Source: Gemmatimonadota bacterium | Lineage (GTDB): Bacteria; Gemmatimonadota; Gemmatimonadetes; Palauibacterales; Palauibacteraceae | Reading direction: 5' to 3' | Length of the DNA: 64,000 nt | Assembly (NCBI GenBank): GCA_039714435.1 | Contig: JBDLJJ010000001.1 | Location: forward strand, 3,717 to 67,716 | Part shown: positions 9,168-21,178 of the stretch, one piece after another | How the letters are laid out: each line of letters begins with the position of its first letter | How positions within the stretch are numbered: the first letter of the stretch is position 1 | Translations under genes and position numbers: made by a program | The notes under the pieces: model-generated | What the model saw: the letters and a program-made list of their open reading frames with translations, nothing else | What the model was told of the DNA's origin: nothing | The model's database searches: none

Positions 9168-9276
9168 CCCCGGCCCTTGCGGGCCAGCAAGCAACACGGC
9201 AGCGTTCGAGCCCTAGTTTCCGGGTATATTCTCCGTTCGCGGCGGGCCGTTTGTGGCCGCCCGCTCAAAGGGCCAT

Positions 9277-10338
9277 ATGACGCTACAGCCTCTTCTGGAC
9301 ATGTCTCCGTCGGACGCCGAGCAGTCGCTGACGGACTTCCTGGCGGCACGTGGCGAGGAGCCATATCGGGCCCGGCAGATCCTGTCATGGGTTTATGAGC
9401 ACAGAGCGACCTCATTCGCGGATATGAGTTCGCTGCCCGCCCCGGTCAGAACCGCGCTAGCGGACGAATACTCGTTGACACTTCTGAGCGAAGCCTTTTC
9501 AGCCAGATCCAGAGACGGGACACTGAAGCACCTGTGGGCCCTGGACGACGGCGAGCAGGTGGAGTCGGTGTTAATCCCCGTGGAAGGACGCGTCACGCTG
9601 TGTATTTCCTCGCAGGTGGGCTGCGCGCTGGGCTGTGGGTTCTGCGCCACCGGTATGTTCGGTTTTCGGCGGCAGCTCAGTGCTGCCGAGATCGCGGCCC
9701 AGTTTCGAGAGGCCGACGGAGCTTCACGGCGGGCCTTCGGCCGGCCCGTATCGAATCTCGTCTACATGGGAATGGGCGAGCCTTTCGCCAACGCGGACGC
9801 GGTCTTCACGTCGCTGTCCGTGATTCACGGCGGTTTCGGCTTCGGAGCCCGCCGAATCACAGTGTCCACCGTAGGCCTGATCCCCGGAATTCGGCGCCTG
9901 GCCGCCCGCCCGGAAGCGTTTCGGCTGGCGGTTTCTCTGCACGCGCCAAACCATGAGCTGCGGATGACGCTTGTCCCCATCGAGCAGCGCTACCCCCTGC
10001 CGGAGCTGTTCGAGGCGCTGCGGGACTACCAGAAGATCAAGAATAGGCGAATCACATTCGAGTACACCCTGATCGAAGGGATCAACGACTCGGTCGAGCT
10101 GGCGGACCAGCTGGCCGATATTTCCACTGGCCTGGACGTATTCGTTAACCTGATTCCGCTCAACCCGGTCCCGGGAATCGATTTGCGCCCCAGCCCGAGG
10201 CGGCAGGTGGACAAGTTTCGTATGGCTCTCGAGGCGCGCGGAATTCCGGCCGCCGTGCGCCAGCCACGGGGACGGGATATCGCCGCGGCCTGCGGTCAGC
10301 TTCGACTTGAGCGCGACGCGGCGGCTACGTCTCGGTAG
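9277..10338 (+). CDS. rlmN: Dual-specificity rRNA/tRNA m2A methyltransferase RlmN (radical SAM).
   Basis: It has a CxxxCxxC cluster in the context SSQVGCALGCGFCATG and a C-terminal DIAAACGQL. The N-terminus RARQILSWVY matches RlmN. The ATG at 9277 is preferred over the track's GTG at 9253. Confidence 0.9.
   Translation: MTLQPLLDMSPSDAEQSLTDFLAARGEEPYRARQILSWVYEHRATSFADMSSLPAPVRTALADEYSLTLLSEAFSARSRDGTLKHLWALDDGEQVESVLIPVEGRVTLCISSQVGCALGCGFCATGMFGFRRQLSAAEIAAQFREADGASRRAFGRPVSNLVYMGMGEPFANADAVFTSLSVIHGGFGFGARRITVSTVGLIPGIRRLAARPEAFRLAVSLHAPNHELRMTLVPIEQRYPLPELFEALRDYQKIKNRRITFEYTLIEGINDSVELADQLADISTGLDVFVNLIPLNPVPGIDLRPSPRRQVDKFRMALEARGIPAAVRQPRGRDIAAACGQLRLERDAAATSR
10128..10240 (+). repeat. 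Direct repeat copy 1 (about 110 bp), forming the functional 3' end of rlmN.
   Basis: It is about 90% identical to 11688-11800 by my own alignment (cctggacgtattcgttaacctgattccgctcaacccggtcccgggaatcgatttgcgccccagcccgaggcggcaggtggacaagtttcgtatggctctcgagg). Confidence 0.8.
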
Positions 10339-10470
10339 GGGGTGGTTTGCCAAGAGGTCGTGTCGGCCTATTGCTATCCTGACCCAAAACGCGATCTTGG
10401 TTCAGTTTAATTCATAAGTTGAACTATAGAGACTGTCGGGATCAGAATGCGCGGAGAGCACATCCCCTGT

Positions 10471-11643
10471 ATGTGGGAGTGGAATCCCACTCTTTACGCA
10501 CCCGCTCGGTACCGCCGAGCCTGCAAGTTTGAGGCTTTCCTTCCATACCCGCTAGCCCTCTCTGACTTCAACCTGAGCGCTGAGATTGCAGGCATCGTTT
10601 CTGACGCAGAACAGGCAATTCTGAAGCTCAATGCACGGGCAGACCCGGCTCTTACACCACTGGCTCGCCTTCTCCTCCGCACTGAGTCCATCGCATCCTC
10701 TAAGGTCGAGGGCCTGCAGGTTGGAATCCGACAGCTCGCTCGCGCCGAGTCGAGGATGGAGACGGGAGGCAAAATCTCGCGAACCGTCCTCGAGGTCATC
10801 GGCAACATCGATGCGATGGAGCTAGCTGTAGAGCAAGCTGCTGCGGCCGATTCTGTTTGCCTCGGGCACATTACTGAAATCCATCGAGAATTGATGGCAA
10901 ACGCTCCCAACTCTCGATGCGCGGGAGTGGTGCGTACTGAACAGAACTGGATTGGCGGAAACGATTACAATCCTTGCGGCGCCGACTTCGTGCCACCGCC
11001 ACCAGAGCACGTAGACCGACTCCTACAGGATCTGTGTGAGGCGATTGCGGATGAATCCCTTTCTCCTCTCGTTCAGGCCGCGATGGTGCACGGACAATTC
11101 GAAACCATCCACCCTTTTGACGACGGAAACGGCCGCACCGGTCGCGCCTTGATCCATGTGGTGCTCCGAAGGAGAGGGGTGGCGGTGTCCTACGTTCCTC
11201 CGATCAGCGTCATGCTAGCCAGGGATCGGACCGGATATATAAATGGCCTCGTCGAGTTCAGGGAAGACCAGATCGGCTCTTGGATCGCCGGTTTCGCAGC
11301 AGCGGCGGCTCAAGCCGCAAGGTTAGCTGAATGCTATCTGGAGGCCGTCAACCTCCAAATGGATGAGTGGAGAAAACGGCTTTCGCAGGGCCCCAACCCC
11401 AGAGCCGATGCGGCGGCCTGGGCGTTAATCGAGGTTCTTCCCGCACACCCAATCATCACGACCCCGGTAGCCGCCGCCGCGACTGGCAGAGCCAAGGCGG
11501 CAGTCCACCAAGCGGTTAGTCAGCTAACCGATTGTGGCGTATTGGAAGCGATCTCATCGTCCAAACGCAACCGGTCTTGGGAAGTGATGGGTCTTCTGGA
11601 ACTTCTGGAGAACCTTGAGGCGGGTGAAATGCCAACGGGTTAG
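10471..11643 (+). CDS. Fic family protein (class II, self-inhibited AMPylator) with a C-terminal winged-helix region.
   Basis: It has a canonical Fic active-site motif HPFDDGNGRTGR. An N-terminal inhibitory-helix motif SSKVEG ((S/T)xxxEG) is on the same chain. Its MWEWNP start is typical of this Fic subfamily. The gene has lower GC than its flanks and is preceded by a 130-bp AT-rich spacer. Confidence 0.85.
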   Translation: MWEWNPTLYAPARYRRACKFEAFLPYPLALSDFNLSAEIAGIVSDAEQAILKLNARADPALTPLARLLLRTESIASSKVEGLQVGIRQLARAESRMETGGKISRTVLEVIGNIDAMELAVEQAAAADSVCLGHITEIHRELMANAPNSRCAGVVRTEQNWIGGNDYNPCGADFVPPPPEHVDRLLQDLCEAIADESLSPLVQAAMVHGQFETIHPFDDGNGRTGRALIHVVLRRRGVAVSYVPPISVMLARDRTGYINGLVEFREDQIGSWIAGFAAAAAQAARLAECYLEAVNLQMDEWRKRLSQGPNPRADAAAWALIEVLPAHPIITTPVAAAATGRAKAAVHQAVSQLTDCGVLEAISSSKRNRSWEVMGLLELLENLEAGEMPTG

Positions 11644-11687
11644 CCCACCCCTTCCTGGCGCACGCGCCGGCATCTCCACCCGCCTGG

Positions 11688-11800
11688 ACGTGTTCGTCAA
11701 CCTGATTCCGCTCAACCAGGTCCCGGGAATCATTTGGCGCCCCAGCCCCAGACGGCAGGTGGAGAAGTTTCGCATGGCTCTCGAGGAGAGGCTGGAGCTG
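11688..11800 (+). pseudogene. Displaced remnant of the rlmN 3' end (direct repeat copy 2).
   Basis: It encodes DVFVNLIPLNQVPGIIWRPSPRRQVEKFRMALEE, which matches RlmN residues DVFVNLIPLNPVPGIDLRPSPRRQVDKFRMALEA, and then diverges. It lacks the RlmN C-terminus and abuts the 3' end of the convergent LytR_C gene. Confidence 0.7.
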
Positions 11801-12256
11801 CTAGCGGCTGCCGCTGAAGGAGCGCCAGTCCTGGCCCAGAATCACGGTGGCGTCAAGGCGGAGATCCGGCCGGGGTTCGTGCACGACGGGCGGACCGCCC
11901 AGCGAATCGGCCACCTCGGCGGCGGCCCCGGCGACCCCGCTGCGATCTACCACGGTGGTCCGTTCGTAGTCGAACCGCTTCGCGTTGCCGTAGGTCTTTA
12001 CGTCGAAGCCCATGGCGCGCAGCCGGTCGGCCACCTGCTCGGCCGCGCCCTTCTCCCCCGCCCCGTTCAGCACCTCGACCCCGATTCGGTCATCCAGGGG
12101 CGCGCGGCCGGCCGTGGCCGGACGTCCCGAGAACACCCCCGGAGGCCCGCCTGCATCGAGCCGCGTATGCCGCCACTCGAGCCAGAATGAACCGACAAGT
12201 ACTCCGACGCCGACCAGTACGGCCACGACCAGGAGTGTGTGGAGCCTATTCTTCAC
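11801..12256 (-). CDS. LytR_C (cell-envelope-related transcriptional attenuator C-terminal) domain membrane protein.
   Basis: 151 aa. It has an N-terminal TM helix and a LytR_C-like core (VEVLNGAGEKGAAEQVADRLRAMGFDVKTYGNAK...TTVV). Confidence 0.65.
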   Translation of the reverse strand: MKNRLHTLLVVAVLVGVGVLVGSFWLEWRHTRLDAGGPPGVFSGRPATAGRAPLDDRIGVEVLNGAGEKGAAEQVADRLRAMGFDVKTYGNAKRFDYERTTVVDRSGVAGAAAEVADSLGGPPVVHEPRPDLRLDATVILGQDWRSFSGSR

Positions 12257-14537: not shown

Positions 14538-14626
14538 TCTGGCTCCAGTTCAGGAAGTAGGCCGGCGGACGGAATGTCTATGAATACAATTTGGACACTC
14601 GGCGCACCACCCACGAAAGGGCTGCC

Positions 14627-16336
14627 ATGACGATTCGGCACGATTCCGTACTCGTGCAAGCTCTGGCCCGGGAGATATCAGAGCGCTGGAGCGGGTGCGC
14701 TGTCGTGGGACTTCATCTCGCTCCCGAGCAGCACCGGGCCCAGCTCGTGTTCGAGGACGGCTCGGCTCTGCTGGCCTGTCTGGAGCCCGGCGCGGGCTAC
14801 ATTCTGGCCCAAGCTGAGGTCGCCCCGCCGGCGAAGGGACGCATGACTTTCGCCAGGAAGGGACTGCGCTTGGCGGGGGCCGCCGCGCCGCCTGACGAGC
14901 GCGTTCTGCTGATCGAGTTGGCCAACGATGAGGGCCAGGTTCGATCCACCTTCGTGCTCGAGCTGCAGCCCCGAAAGTGGAACGCCGCCTACGTGACGTC
15001 GGGCCAGGGACTGGTTCGAGCGGCGCTGCGCCAGCAGACCCGGGGCGAGCGGACGTTGATCGGCGGGAAGCCATATTCGGCGCCAGCCAGCCGGCGCTCC
15101 TGGGCCGCTGATCTGCCGTCCGGCGCAGATTGGGCGGCGACGATCGTGGGCCTGGAGGTCGAGGGCCGGCGTGCAGCGATCCTGGCCAGTATTTCGTATA
15201 CGAGTGGTTTGAACGTGGACTTCCTCCTGGGCTCCGCCATGGCGTGCACGGATGTGGGCGCCGACGAGTTGAAGCAGGCCTATGACCGCTACACGGCGCT
15301 CCGGACCTGGACGCCCGGCGCGGCCGCCTGGCTGGTGTCGACTCCGGCCGGCTTACAGCCCTACGTGTCCAGCCTGTCCGATCCGGGCGCCGCGAGTTTC
15401 GGTTCCCTGCTCGAGGCCATGGGCTCCGCCGCAGATGGGAGTGATTCAGCCAGGAGCACGGCCCTGTCGGAATGGCGCGCGGCGGACCGGACTGGAGAGG
15501 AAGCGGATCTGGAGCTCGCCCTGCGGCGGAAGCTGAACCGCATCGAGCGCCGGCTGGCAGCGATGCGGCGACAGATAGAGGCGGGCGGCGGTGATGAGCT
15601 CCGGCAGATCGGGCACCTGCTGCTGGCCAAGCAGCATGAGATTGAGCGCGGTGCGGGCGAGGCCACACTCGAGGACTTCAGCGGCGAACTGCGCACCATA
15701 GAACTGGATCCGGCCCTGAGTGTTACGGACAATGCCGCCAGCTATTACGAGTCCGCCCGCCGCCGTGACCGGGCCCTGAGCAGGCTCCCGGCCAAGATTC
15801 GAGGCGACGAAAGAACTGCGGGCCGGCTGCGCGACGCTCTCGGCCTCCTCGGCGCCGAGGGAGCCAGCCCGGAAGCGTGGAAGCTGGCCGGTGGGCGGCC
15901 AGCCGTGGCTCAGGCACCTCCGGGCGCCGCTGACGCGACAAGTCTCCCCTATCGCGTTCTACATACCACCAGCGGCCGCGAAATCCGCGTCGGCCGCTCC
16001 GCCCGCGGCAACGACGACCTCACCTTTCGCCACTCCTCGCCGGACGACGTGTGGCTGCACGCCCGCCAGGTGCACGGCGCGCATGTCATCCTGCGCTGGG
16101 ACAGTAAGGATCAGAACCCGTCTCGCCGCGATCTGCAGGAGGCCGCGGTGGCGGCGGCCTGCAACAGCGAGGCCCGGCACAGCGGTACGGTGGCCGTCGA
16201 CTGGACGCGGCGGAAATACGTTCGGAAGCCGCGCAAAGCGCCGCCCGGCTCGGTTACCGTGGAGCGCACGAGAACGCTGTTCGTGTCACCCGATGAAACC
16301 CTTCTGAAGCGCCTCGCGGCCGAGCCGGATTCCTGA
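14627..16336 (+). CDS. NFACT-family protein (FbpA/RqcH-like; NFACT-N plus C-terminal NFACT-R/DUF814).
   Basis: About 570 aa with a coiled-coil middle region. The C-terminus has DVWLHARQVHGAHVILRW, typical of DUF814/NFACT-R. The ATG at 14627 is preferred over the track's TTG at 14591. Confidence 0.7.
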   Translation: MTIRHDSVLVQALAREISERWSGCAVVGLHLAPEQHRAQLVFEDGSALLACLEPGAGYILAQAEVAPPAKGRMTFARKGLRLAGAAAPPDERVLLIELANDEGQVRSTFVLELQPRKWNAAYVTSGQGLVRAALRQQTRGERTLIGGKPYSAPASRRSWAADLPSGADWAATIVGLEVEGRRAAILASISYTSGLNVDFLLGSAMACTDVGADELKQAYDRYTALRTWTPGAAAWLVSTPAGLQPYVSSLSDPGAASFGSLLEAMGSAADGSDSARSTALSEWRAADRTGEEADLELALRRKLNRIERRLAAMRRQIEAGGGDELRQIGHLLLAKQHEIERGAGEATLEDFSGELRTIELDPALSVTDNAASYYESARRRDRALSRLPAKIRGDERTAGRLRDALGLLGAEGASPEAWKLAGGRPAVAQAPPGAADATSLPYRVLHTTSGREIRVGRSARGNDDLTFRHSSPDDVWLHARQVHGAHVILRWDSKDQNPSRRDLQEAAVAAACNSEARHSGTVAVDWTRRKYVRKPRKAPPGSVTVERTRTLFVSPDETLLKRLAAEPDS

Positions 16337-19472: not shown

Positions 19473-19529
19473 GGTTACGGACTGAGATGCGGTTCACCGG
19501 CCACAGCGATTTCCAAGGAGCCCGCCACC

Positions 19530-20141
19530 ATGGCACTCACGAGAAGGCAGAAGCAGATCCTCGATTTCATCGAGAGTTTCCTCGACACTCATGGCTACTC
19601 GCCAAGCTTCGAAGAGATCGCGGCCTTCTTCGGCTACAGGTCTCTTGCCACGGTGCATGAGCACCTCTCTAACCTCGAGGCCAAGGGATACATCAGGAAG
19701 AACTACAACGAGAGTCGTTCTATCGAGCTGGCTCAGACAGACATGCGCCTCTCCTCTGTCACGCTTCCCCTCCTCGGCCTCGTCGCCGCGGGTGAGCCTA
19801 TCGAGGTTATCGAGCAGCAGGAGATGATCGCCGTCCCGGACGACATGGTATCGGGCTCGGCCAGCACACACTTCGTTCTGCGCGTGCGCGGGCAATCGAT
19901 GATCGAAGAGCAGATCCGCGACGGAGATTATGTCATTGTTCAGTCCCGGGAGACGGCGCACAACGGCGAGATGGTCATCGCGCTGGTGGACGGAGATAGC
20001 GCGACGGTCAAGAAGTACTACCGCGAAGACGGCGGCCGCGTGCGGCTGCAGCCGGCCAACCCACTGCTGACACCTCTCTTCTTCGATGAGGACAGAGTGC
20101 AGATCCAGGGCATAGTGGTCGGAGTCATACGCAAGTACTGA
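19530..20141 (+). CDS. lexA: LexA repressor (SOS regulator, S24 peptidase).
   Basis: 203 aa. It has an N-terminal wHTH (LTRRQKQILDFIESF...SPSFEEIA) and a C-terminal autoprotease with the RVRGQSMIE (Ser) and KKYYRE (Lys) contexts. Confidence 0.9.
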   Translation: MALTRRQKQILDFIESFLDTHGYSPSFEEIAAFFGYRSLATVHEHLSNLEAKGYIRKNYNESRSIELAQTDMRLSSVTLPLLGLVAAGEPIEVIEQQEMIAVPDDMVSGSASTHFVLRVRGQSMIEEQIRDGDYVIVQSRETAHNGEMVIALVDGDSATVKKYYREDGGRVRLQPANPLLTPLFFDEDRVQIQGIVVGVIRKY

Positions 20142-20371
20142 GCGAAACCACCAGGGAGATCAGACTATGGCCAACCGTTCCAGACGCCGCCCCTTTGTCA
20201 TCGGATACATATCAGGAACGAAGGTGACGATGTGGTTTTTGCGGGCTACCCGGCCTCCGATCAAAGGTCCCTGGACTCTGGCCCAACTCAGCCATGACGC
20301 CTCCGCGGAGCGCCGCACGGCCTGAATTTTCCCGGCTGGCCCAGTCAGGTTCCGCCCGGTAGGTTCGCCCG

Positions 20372-21178
20372 GTGGAGCACGGAGAGAACGGAAAAATTCG
20401 CGCCACGGTCCACTACGACGGGACCGGATTTCACGGCTCGCAGCGTCAACCCGCCGCGCGAACCGTGCAGGGCGAGGTAGAGCGCTGTCTGCGGAGGCTT
20501 TTCGAGGAAGCCACCCGGGTCGACGCCGCCGGACGCACCGATACGGGGGTGCATGCCGCCGGCCAGGAAATAGCTTTCACTCCTCCCCCCGGCTGGGATC
20601 CGCCCGAGCTTCGCCGGGCTCTGAACGCAGTACTTCCCGGCGACATCTGGATCGAGTCGCTCACCGAAGCAGAGCCTGATTTCCATCCACGGTTCTCGGC
20701 CACTGGACGGCGATACGAGTATTATGTTGGAACCGCCGCCGACTTCATGGCGCCCTCCTGGCTCAACCGGGTCTGGCAGTTTGGCAGCCCGCTGTCGACA
20801 GATATCTTGAGAAGCGCAGCCAAGCCGACGCTGGGACGTCATTCATTTGCGCGGCTGTCCAAGACTGGAGCAGTGGAGAAGAGTACGATCTGCTGCATTG
20901 AGAAGGCGGAATGGACAGACATGGGGGGAGGGAACGTGAGGCTCACAGTAGTGGCGGATCGTTTCCTACACCGTATGGTACGGTATCTGGTAGCTACGAT
21001 GGTCGATATCGCCCTGGAGAAGAGACCTCTGACTGACATCTCGGCCTTGCTCGCCGCAAGGAAGGCACGCCCACCCGAGCCCGCGCCAGCGGTAGGCCTT
21101 TACCTGACTGGAGTTCGCTACGCAGAGGGCTGGAACCGCGCACCTGGAGTGCCCGGGCTGGGAGCGGTGCGCGCATGA
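20372..21178 (+). CDS. truA: tRNA pseudouridine(38-40) synthase TruA.
   Basis: 268 aa with the catalytic Asp context GRTDTGVHAAGQEIAF and N-terminal YDGTGFHGSQRQ. It has a GTG start. Confidence 0.85.
   Translation: MEHGENGKIRATVHYDGTGFHGSQRQPAARTVQGEVERCLRRLFEEATRVDAAGRTDTGVHAAGQEIAFTPPPGWDPPELRRALNAVLPGDIWIESLTEAEPDFHPRFSATGRRYEYYVGTAADFMAPSWLNRVWQFGSPLSTDILRSAAKPTLGRHSFARLSKTGAVEKSTICCIEKAEWTDMGGGNVRLTVVADRFLHRMVRYLVATMVDIALEKRPLTDISALLAARKARPPEPAPAVGLYLTGVRYAEGWNRAPGVPGLGAVRA

Follow-up and report, generated by a model that had tools for sequence, protein, structure and literature searches.

Introduction

The Fido-fold toxins of the class I systems FicT/FicA, VbhT/VbhA and Doc/Phd are blocked by a helix carrying the motif (S/T)xxxE(G/N), which in these systems is encoded by a separate antitoxin gene, whereas in the protein described here the helix lies on the same chain, the arrangement that defines class II (Engel et al., 2012, as summarised in PMC9755527 and PMC12249575). 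The described systems closest to it are class II proteins with a C-terminal helix-turn-helix domain. In Shewanella oneidensis, dimeric SoFic (SO_4266/MloA) binds the 100 bp that precede its start codon and transfers adenosine monophosphate (AMP) to EF-Tu (AMPylation) in a dimer-dependent manner (bioRxiv 10.64898/2026.07.09.737422). In Escherichia coli, wild-type EcSofic is toxic, with dimerisation and the C-terminal domain both required, and the Sofic system, in which an open reading frame (ORF) for an AS1-type antitoxin lies directly downstream, protects against phage T5 (PMC12249575). In Yersinia pseudotuberculosis, CccR represses its own promoter through a long-spacer inverted repeat, AGATAATCAT-N26-ATGATAATCT, and AMPylates FtsZ (PMC9755527); accounts of CccR also report its secretion by a type VI system and altered expression of other genes. 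Here we describe a gene of this kind, encoding a Fic protein with a C-terminal winged helix-turn-helix (wHTH), which lies at 10447-11643 of a 64,000-nucleotide stretch of DNA (hereafter the window; contig JBDLJJ010000001.1 of assembly GCA_039714435.1) from a Gemmatimonadota bacterium.

The gene belongs to the already catalogued SoFic/CccR-like class II Fic-wHTH group. For the fuller picture argued below, in which promoter, operator and gene entered this genome horizontally as one self-contained unit and would encode an autorepressed, regulated toxin, we estimate a probability of about 0.6.

A Class II Fic Protein Under Purifying Selection

The plus strand of 10447-11643 holds a single long ORF in the program-made list, of 398 amino acids (aa), beginning with ATG and ending with a stop codon at 11641-11643; its assignment as a Fic-wHTH gene draws on the ORF list, Pfam, the PADLOC SoFic model, the N-terminal sequence MRG and codon substitution rates. 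An earlier note on this DNA had placed the start at 10471, and the public annotation (390 aa, P0001; database label ‘Fic family protein [Gemmatimonadota bacterium]’) likewise begins at M9. The start has to be moved 24 nt in the 5' direction, to the ATG at 10447, because the N-terminus that is thereby gained, MRG...TW.W.P, is conserved: among 41 selected homologues that were aligned, M1 and G3 never vary and R2 hardly does, ATGCGCGG is kept at the DNA level together with the DNA around the ATG, and residues 3-10 of the extension form a β strand in the AlphaFold2 model described below. Exact-sequence look-ups with the 390-aa and the 398-aa forms of the protein matched no contig.

The catalytic Fic motif HPFDDGNGRTGR (aa 222-233, nt 11110-11145, plus strand), in which H222 is the predicted catalytic base, fits the consensus HxFx(D/E)GNGRxxR exactly, and residues H222, F224, D226, G227, N228, G229, R230 and R233 are invariant across 42 aligned sequences, so that the degenerate active site which had been named as a possible objection is not what the alignment contains. 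The inhibitory motif SSKVEG (aa 84-89, nt 10696-10713, plus strand) fits (S/T)xxxE(G/N) and provides E88 as the predicted inhibitory glutamate. It lies 138 residues upstream of HPFDDGNGRTGR, measured start to start, and not about 100 as had been stated. Both motifs are retained in 117 of 119 close homologues, with the 138-residue spacing fixed in 116 of them. Every residue that is invariant in the family is present in the window protein, the ORF is intact, and the ratio of nonsynonymous to synonymous substitution rates (dN/dS) is 0.07-0.09 against four homologues; against the nearest of these, synonymous sites are saturated and the ratio is 0.07. The gene is under strong purifying selection.

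The profile search proposed in the earlier note identifies Pfam Fic (PF02661) at aa 139-240 with E = 5e-22 (79 bits against a cutoff of 24), preceded by Fic_N (PF13784) at aa 52-129 with E = 1.4e-8, while the wHTH family HVO_A0114 gives a sub-threshold Pfam match at aa 324-371. An AlphaFold2 model built from 42 sequences is confident, with a mean local confidence score (pLDDT) of 89.1 and a predicted template modelling score (pTM) of 0.87. In this model, a β hairpin (aa 3-33) opens the chain, helix 45-63 leads straight into helix 67-87, whose end carries the inhibitory motif, and the Fic core is followed by a long connector helix (276-313) and by a C-terminal domain (aa 322-391; nt 11410-11619, plus strand) with the order helix-strand-helix-helix-wing: helix 322-333, strand 336-338, helix 339-346, helix 350-362, which is the predicted recognition helix, and a wing formed by strands 366-368 and 377-380. 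Many Fic structures are matched by Foldseek, and the model superposes over its full length, wHTH included, on the solved Fic-wHTH proteins. The winged helix that the earlier note had surmised is thus predicted by the model and by its structural matches, and it agrees with the co-variation of the operator considered in the next section; the full catalytic motif and the in-cis inhibitory motif of a class II protein were also correctly recognised in that note.

The PADLOC SoFic model (PDLC03963) aligns aa 27-388 to its positions 5-359 of 361 with E = 5e-72. Because the protein matches the family in profile and in fold, carries near-invariant motifs and shows so low a dN/dS, it counts as a functional representative of the class II Fic-wHTH group already described. 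The family is large, with 12,055 cluster representatives at E <= 1e-3 and 789 at E <= 1e-30.

A Candidate Operator That Travels With the Gene

From locus to locus the gene is accompanied by about 77 nt of the DNA that precedes it: nucleotide similarity among otherwise unrelated loci spans 10371 to the stop codon. The upstream part of this conserved segment, a putative promoter/operator block (10371-10448, plus strand), begins with TTGCTA (10371-10376), a possible –35 element, ends over the start codon, and is occupied by a nested dyad, ATCCTGAACC ... TTAGTTCAGnTTA-N5-TAAnCTGAACTAA ... GGTTCAGGATG, with four copies of a half-site in alternating orientation. In plus-strand coordinates, these are the outer-left half-site ATCCTGACCC (10376-10385; subfamily consensus ATCCTGAACC), which was delimited from alignments and repeat statistics, the inner-left half-site TTGGTTCAGTTTA (10397-10409) and the inner-right half-site TAAGTTGAACTAT (10415-10427; consensus TAAACTGAACTAA), both taken from alignments, and the outer-right half-site GGGATCAGAAT (10438-10448; consensus GGTTCAGGAT), which overlaps the ribosome-binding region and the ATG.

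When 13 members of the subfamily are compared, 87.7% of cells keep the dyad symmetry. When copies of an 8-mer were counted on either strand with at most one mismatch, at least four were found in 18 of 71 distinct upstream regions, compared with none of the shuffled controls and one of the in-ORF controls; in every one of the examples listed the orientation alternates, with a spacing of about 13-27 nt. The half-site itself varies by subfamily (GTTCAG, GTAAAGG, TATAGT, TATGGT and CCTAATTA in the regions L085-L164, about 100 nt upstream of the fic starts), and its type tracks residues of the recognition helix, which read KAA(I/V)HQ, KPA(I/V)NQ, KAA(I/V)SE or RPQV(H/Y). Such joint change of half-site and wHTH recognition helix from one subfamily to the next suggests the signature of a protein-DNA recognition pair and an autorepression like that of CccR and SoFic. 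The conserved dyad had been overlooked in the earlier note, and it makes it improbable that the gene is unregulated.

The dyad could also be read as a hairpin in the 5' untranslated region. This reading was ranked below that of an operator, because the half-site occurs four times and tracks the recognition helix. Rfam returned no match in the flanks or in the upstream block.

Relation to the Described Systems

By sequence and by fold, the closest solved relative is PDB entry 7CB8, a FIC-domain protein of Mycobacterium marinum crystallised with cytidine diphosphate (CDP). It matches the window protein over the full length (E = 9e-58 with a single sequence, 1.7e-78 with a profile), has the Fic_N, Fic and wHTH layout in common with it, superposes with a TM score of 0.87-0.88 and a root-mean-square deviation of 2.6 Å over 391 columns, and has the same inhibitory-helix sequence, LLLRTES(I/V)ASSK(V/I)E. 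Nevertheless, identity in the structural alignment is about 32-33%, and the inhibitory motif of 7CB8 is SSKIER, where R replaces the canonical G/N. This entry has been cited as CccR (PMC13621843). We rejected the identification, since the PDB title names Mycobacterium marinum, and transferred no CccR data through it; the motif of 7CB8, HPFTDGNGRIGR, is different from that of CccR, HPFGNGNGRTVR (PMC9755527). A likelier structure of CccR is the 380-aa entry 7XUX.

The other Foldseek matches are more distant, with TM scores of 0.76 to SoFic, 0.61 to 7xux and 0.58 to CbFic2, as against 0.87 to 7cb8. With SoFic and EcSofic the window protein has in common class II membership, a single gene, a canonical motif, a C-terminal wHTH and an N-terminal helix that runs into the inhibitory helix; it differs from them in that no conserved small ORF like AS1 follows the gene and in that most homologous loci lie outside defence islands. 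CccR is likewise a class II Fic protein with a helix-turn-helix, and it forms a dimer; in both cases a dyad of repeated half-sites covers the promoter and start region. However, CccR has the variant motif HPFGNGNGRTVR, secretion by a type VI system and FtsZ as its target, its operator has two half-sites where the element upstream of the window gene has four, and similarity to 7xux, its probable structure, is low (identity 19% at the TM score given above). As for class I, the inhibitory helix of the window protein is on its own chain with no conserved adjacent gene, and VbhT is only a weak fold match (TM 0.29).

A Foreign Gene Between Convergent Neighbours That Overlap in Relatives

The gene sits between rlmN (9253-10338, plus strand), which is intact (NCBIfam TIGR00048, 349.9 bits against a cutoff of 290) and collinear to its stop codon with the copy in the closest relative, and a convergent gene with a lytR_C domain (11801-12256, minus strand; Pfam LytR_C, E = 3.5e-18), which in relatives overlaps the 3' end of rlmN. 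In five Gemmatimonadota relatives (L006-L009 and L011) rlmN and lytR_C stand side by side without fic, and in four of these (L006-L009) the two genes overlap convergently by 20-23 nt, the lytR_C stop lying just past the rlmN codons RLER. The G+C content at third codon positions (GC3) of fic is 0.617, against 0.73-0.83 in eight neighbouring genes, and its product shares 70-72% identity with homologues that bear the names Thermoanaerobaculales and Armatimonadetes, while RlmN reaches at most 49% identity outside Gemmatimonadota. Because of this low GC3, of the empty site in relatives and of the approximately 70% identity across phyla, the gene is, on compositional and comparative grounds, foreign to this genome and horizontally acquired.

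In the closest relative (L005, RlmN 84% identical) a low-GC gene of the PF00144 beta-lactamase family occupies the same spot (L005:5063-6456). In the two genomes, foreign inserts of about 1.4 kb that differ from each other separate the pair, fic in the window (10338-11801) and the PF00144 gene in L005, and both have the derived rlmN tail RLERDAAATSR. Since L005 carries a different gene at the same spot, the rlmN/lytR_C site looks like a recurrent insertion hotspot.

A 125-nt direct repeat brackets the gene, with one copy (10114-10238) inside intact rlmN and the other at 11666-11790; the two are 86-88% identical and are the only occurrences in the window. The second copy (plus strand) stops 10 nt short of the stop codon of lytR_C and belongs to a non-functional relic of the rlmN 3' end (11652-11800), which is in frame without a stop, reads ...FRMALEE-RLEL and then meets the lytR_C stop. 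Its layout would fit the ancestral, overlapped rlmN end minus 66 nt (GIPAAVRQPRGRDIAAACGQLR) through an internal deletion; the short alignment of the relic tail to the true rlmN end is non-significant, 1624 of 2000 shuffles being as good. Given that rlmN and lytR_C overlap in relatives, the split would require a duplication of the rlmN 3' end, and the second copy is probably the decayed original end, the duplication having been made when the overlapping pair was separated. The repeats were also considered as attachment sites or element ends, and this was rejected as the preferred reading: the first copy lies within an rlmN that is collinear with that of L005, the copies lack a long identical core, the conserved fic unit begins 132 nt past the first copy and stops at its own stop codon, and no such repeats flank fic in L001-L003. 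In the mobile-looking cassette of the earlier note, the repeat is probably a by-product of an rlmN duplication and not the boundary of an element.

Neighbourhoods of the Homologous Genes

In order to look for a partner gene, 85 homologous loci were gathered and the ORFs up to 4 kb from fic were compared all-against-all by BLAST. No flanking ORF family recurred in more than 6 of the 85 loci, and the family found in six (L113, L114, L115, L129, L130 and L136) encodes a tyrosine integrase (PF00589) directly upstream of the fic homologue, for example on the minus strand at L130:4390-5904. As a tyrosine integrase adjoins fic in these loci, some family members ride on integrative elements. Furthermore, Pfam sorts the 102 ORFs nearest to fic into 90 families, none of them represented more than three times. 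In the window, no free-standing small ORF was found in either flank and no AS1-like antitoxin was seen: the rlmN relic takes up the 157 nt from the fic stop to the lytR_C stop, and ORFs in this gap are antisense or overlap artefacts, a negative that comes from comparing downstream ORFs across loci and not from a search with the AS1 sequence. A partner gene, or a class I module of the FicT/FicA type, was rejected for the window because the inhibitory motif is in cis and the adjacent gene is not conserved, and the solitary state that had been claimed from the sequence extends across the loci compared. The gene is solitary, but its architecture is a known one and relatives have published targets and regulation.

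The context of the fic unit differs at every homologous locus, without conserved synteny, which is contrary to what would be expected if the homologues were uniformly chromosomal housekeeping genes, the other objection that had been foreseen. Carriage on phages or plasmids was rejected: phage records gave only partial matches of the MloA type, plasmids gave matches of at most 37% identity, and IMG/VR gave none. In one 2.66-Mb genome (L166:2313-11688) the fic homologue lies between glmS and gyrBA, with genes for HicA, a BrnA-type antitoxin, a ThsB_TIR and DUF4231 pair and a UvrD helicase as neighbours. On the contig of the homologue P0003, an additional Fic-domain gene distinct from it (L001:111-1394; 427 aa, with PF02661 alone) is found 6.6 kb upstream.

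Two further features of the window are mentioned for completeness. A 581-aa gene of the NFACT family (RqcH/FbpA-like) lies at 14550-16336 on the plus strand, and a 372-aa antisense ORF rich in Arg, Pro and Ser covers it; the latter is a typical high-GC artefact. At 19501-21000, a few kb downstream of an S8 peptidase gene, G+C falls a second time, to 0.59-0.62 where the window as a whole averages 0.64, and this segment could also have been acquired.

Proposed Mechanism and Its Alternatives

If it works like SoFic, EcSofic and CccR, the protein would dimerise through helix 45-63, which precedes the inhibitory helix, and the dimer would bind its own operator and repress its own transcription, keeping expression low. 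E88 of the inhibitory helix would, as expected of a class II protein, reach the second arginine of the Fic motif (R233) and hold ATP in a non-productive pose, and the protein in this state would be incompetent for AMPylation and perhaps competent for deAMPylation, again as in its relatives. Relief of autoinhibition or of repression would then allow H222 to transfer AMP to a hydroxyl-bearing side chain on some essential protein of the cytoplasm, for which switch I of EF-Tu (SoFic) and FtsZ (CccR) are the precedents, and growth arrest would follow. The most likely role, by comparison with the described systems, would be that of a regulated toxin serving as an abortive-infection or addiction-type module. 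That the gene was selected for anti-phage defence is rated low, at roughly one chance in three, because the defence-island signal is weak.

Several results weigh against this picture. The NCBIfam SoFic equivalog model (NF046030) scores 62.9 bits where its cutoff is 550, and identity to SoFic in the structural alignment is about 20%; judged by these comparisons the window protein is not a SoFic orthologue, and for this reason the targets of SoFic are not transferable with confidence. For 7CB8 no published function was found in the literature, and its nucleotide, CDP, is not an adenine nucleotide, which makes the nucleotide substrate uncertain. The association with phage-defence islands that the earlier note proposed to look for turned out to be weak: defence or toxin-antitoxin genes occur in one of eight annotated neighbourhoods (L166), a PADLOC scan of the 102 nearest neighbours gave nothing consistent, and no relatives were found in the viral contigs of IMG/VR. 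Regarding regulation, three of the four half-sites in the window differ from the subfamily consensus by one base or an insertion, scans of the locus detected neither a sigma-70-like promoter nor a terminator, and the RNA hairpin over the start codon has a marginal fold z-score of -1.66 against shuffles, with pair counts that do not discriminate.

Some of the same observations can be accommodated by other explanations. The protein might be a reversible housekeeping regulator, acting mainly as a deAMPylase/AMPylase to adjust translation, or some other core process, under stress and playing no part in defence or addiction. SoFic has been reported to work constitutively as a deAMPylase, for which it requires the inhibitory glutamate, ordinary metabolic genes surround most of the homologous loci, and strong purifying selection would suit such a role; but the distribution is patchy and synteny is not conserved, the identity across phyla and the foreign GC3 point to an accessory, often transferred gene, and the closest relatives lack fic at the rlmN/lytR_C site, so that we regard this explanation as unlikely, at about the level of an outside chance. 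A more speculative view, to which we give rather less credence, takes promoter, four-half-site operator and Fic-wHTH gene together (about 1.27 kb) as a minimal, recombinase-free selfish module. One polypeptide would then be toxin, its own ‘antitoxin’ through the in-cis helix and its own repressor, and would move from phylum to phylum as a lone gene; operator and recognition helix would change in step and so insulate co-resident copies; and DNA occupancy by the wHTH could act as the switch, with events such as the entry of phage DNA or the loss or dilution of the locus releasing AMPylation.

The conserved operator that co-varies with the recognition helix would also fit a protein that is primarily a transcription factor of further genes, with the Fic domain as a nucleotide-sensing or DNA-activated module as in Coxiella CbFic2, and CccR is reported to alter the expression of other genes, and the title of a paper on CbFic2 reports a DNA-binding-induced (de)AMPylation. 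Catalytic and inhibitory motifs that are near-invariant across the family indicate, however, that catalysis itself is selected, and the only clear operator copies found, with 64 kb of the genome to look at, are those upstream of the gene itself; such a role is improbable. Slightly more improbable is an inert passenger heading to decay, silenced or unexpressed and intact only through recent insertion. The imperfect half-sites of the window copy, the promoter- and terminator-like sites that were not detected and the past deletion recorded in the flanking rlmN relic could all be explained in this way, while the intact ORF with every invariant residue of the family, and a dN/dS of 0.07 at saturated synonymous sites, speak against it. 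Least probable of all, and to be given very little weight, is a secreted interbacterial effector delivered into neighbouring cells like CccR: the architecture is common to both, and CccR is secreted by a type VI system, but the low similarity to 7xux speaks against it, no secretion genes were seen near fic in the window or recurring beside homologues, and the neighbours of fic in the window are rlmN, aspS, phoH, lytR_C, panBC and similar housekeeping genes.

Implications

In practice, the gene should be annotated as a class II Fic-wHTH protein (SoFic-like) of 398 aa starting at 10447, and the label ‘orphan of unknown type’ does not suit it. The locus also offers a probable example of how foreign DNA can lodge between overlapping convergent genes by duplication of a 3' end, leaving a repeat that mimics the boundary of an element. 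The current understanding of Fic enzymes is left unchanged by these findings. What they bring into view is a subfamily of 789 representatives, without an experimentally studied member, as a solitary gene that spreads across phyla of soil and sediment, and in which the co-variation of operator and recognition helix may represent a specificity code for Fic-wHTH autoregulators and would provide an experimental handle on how these enzymes are silenced.

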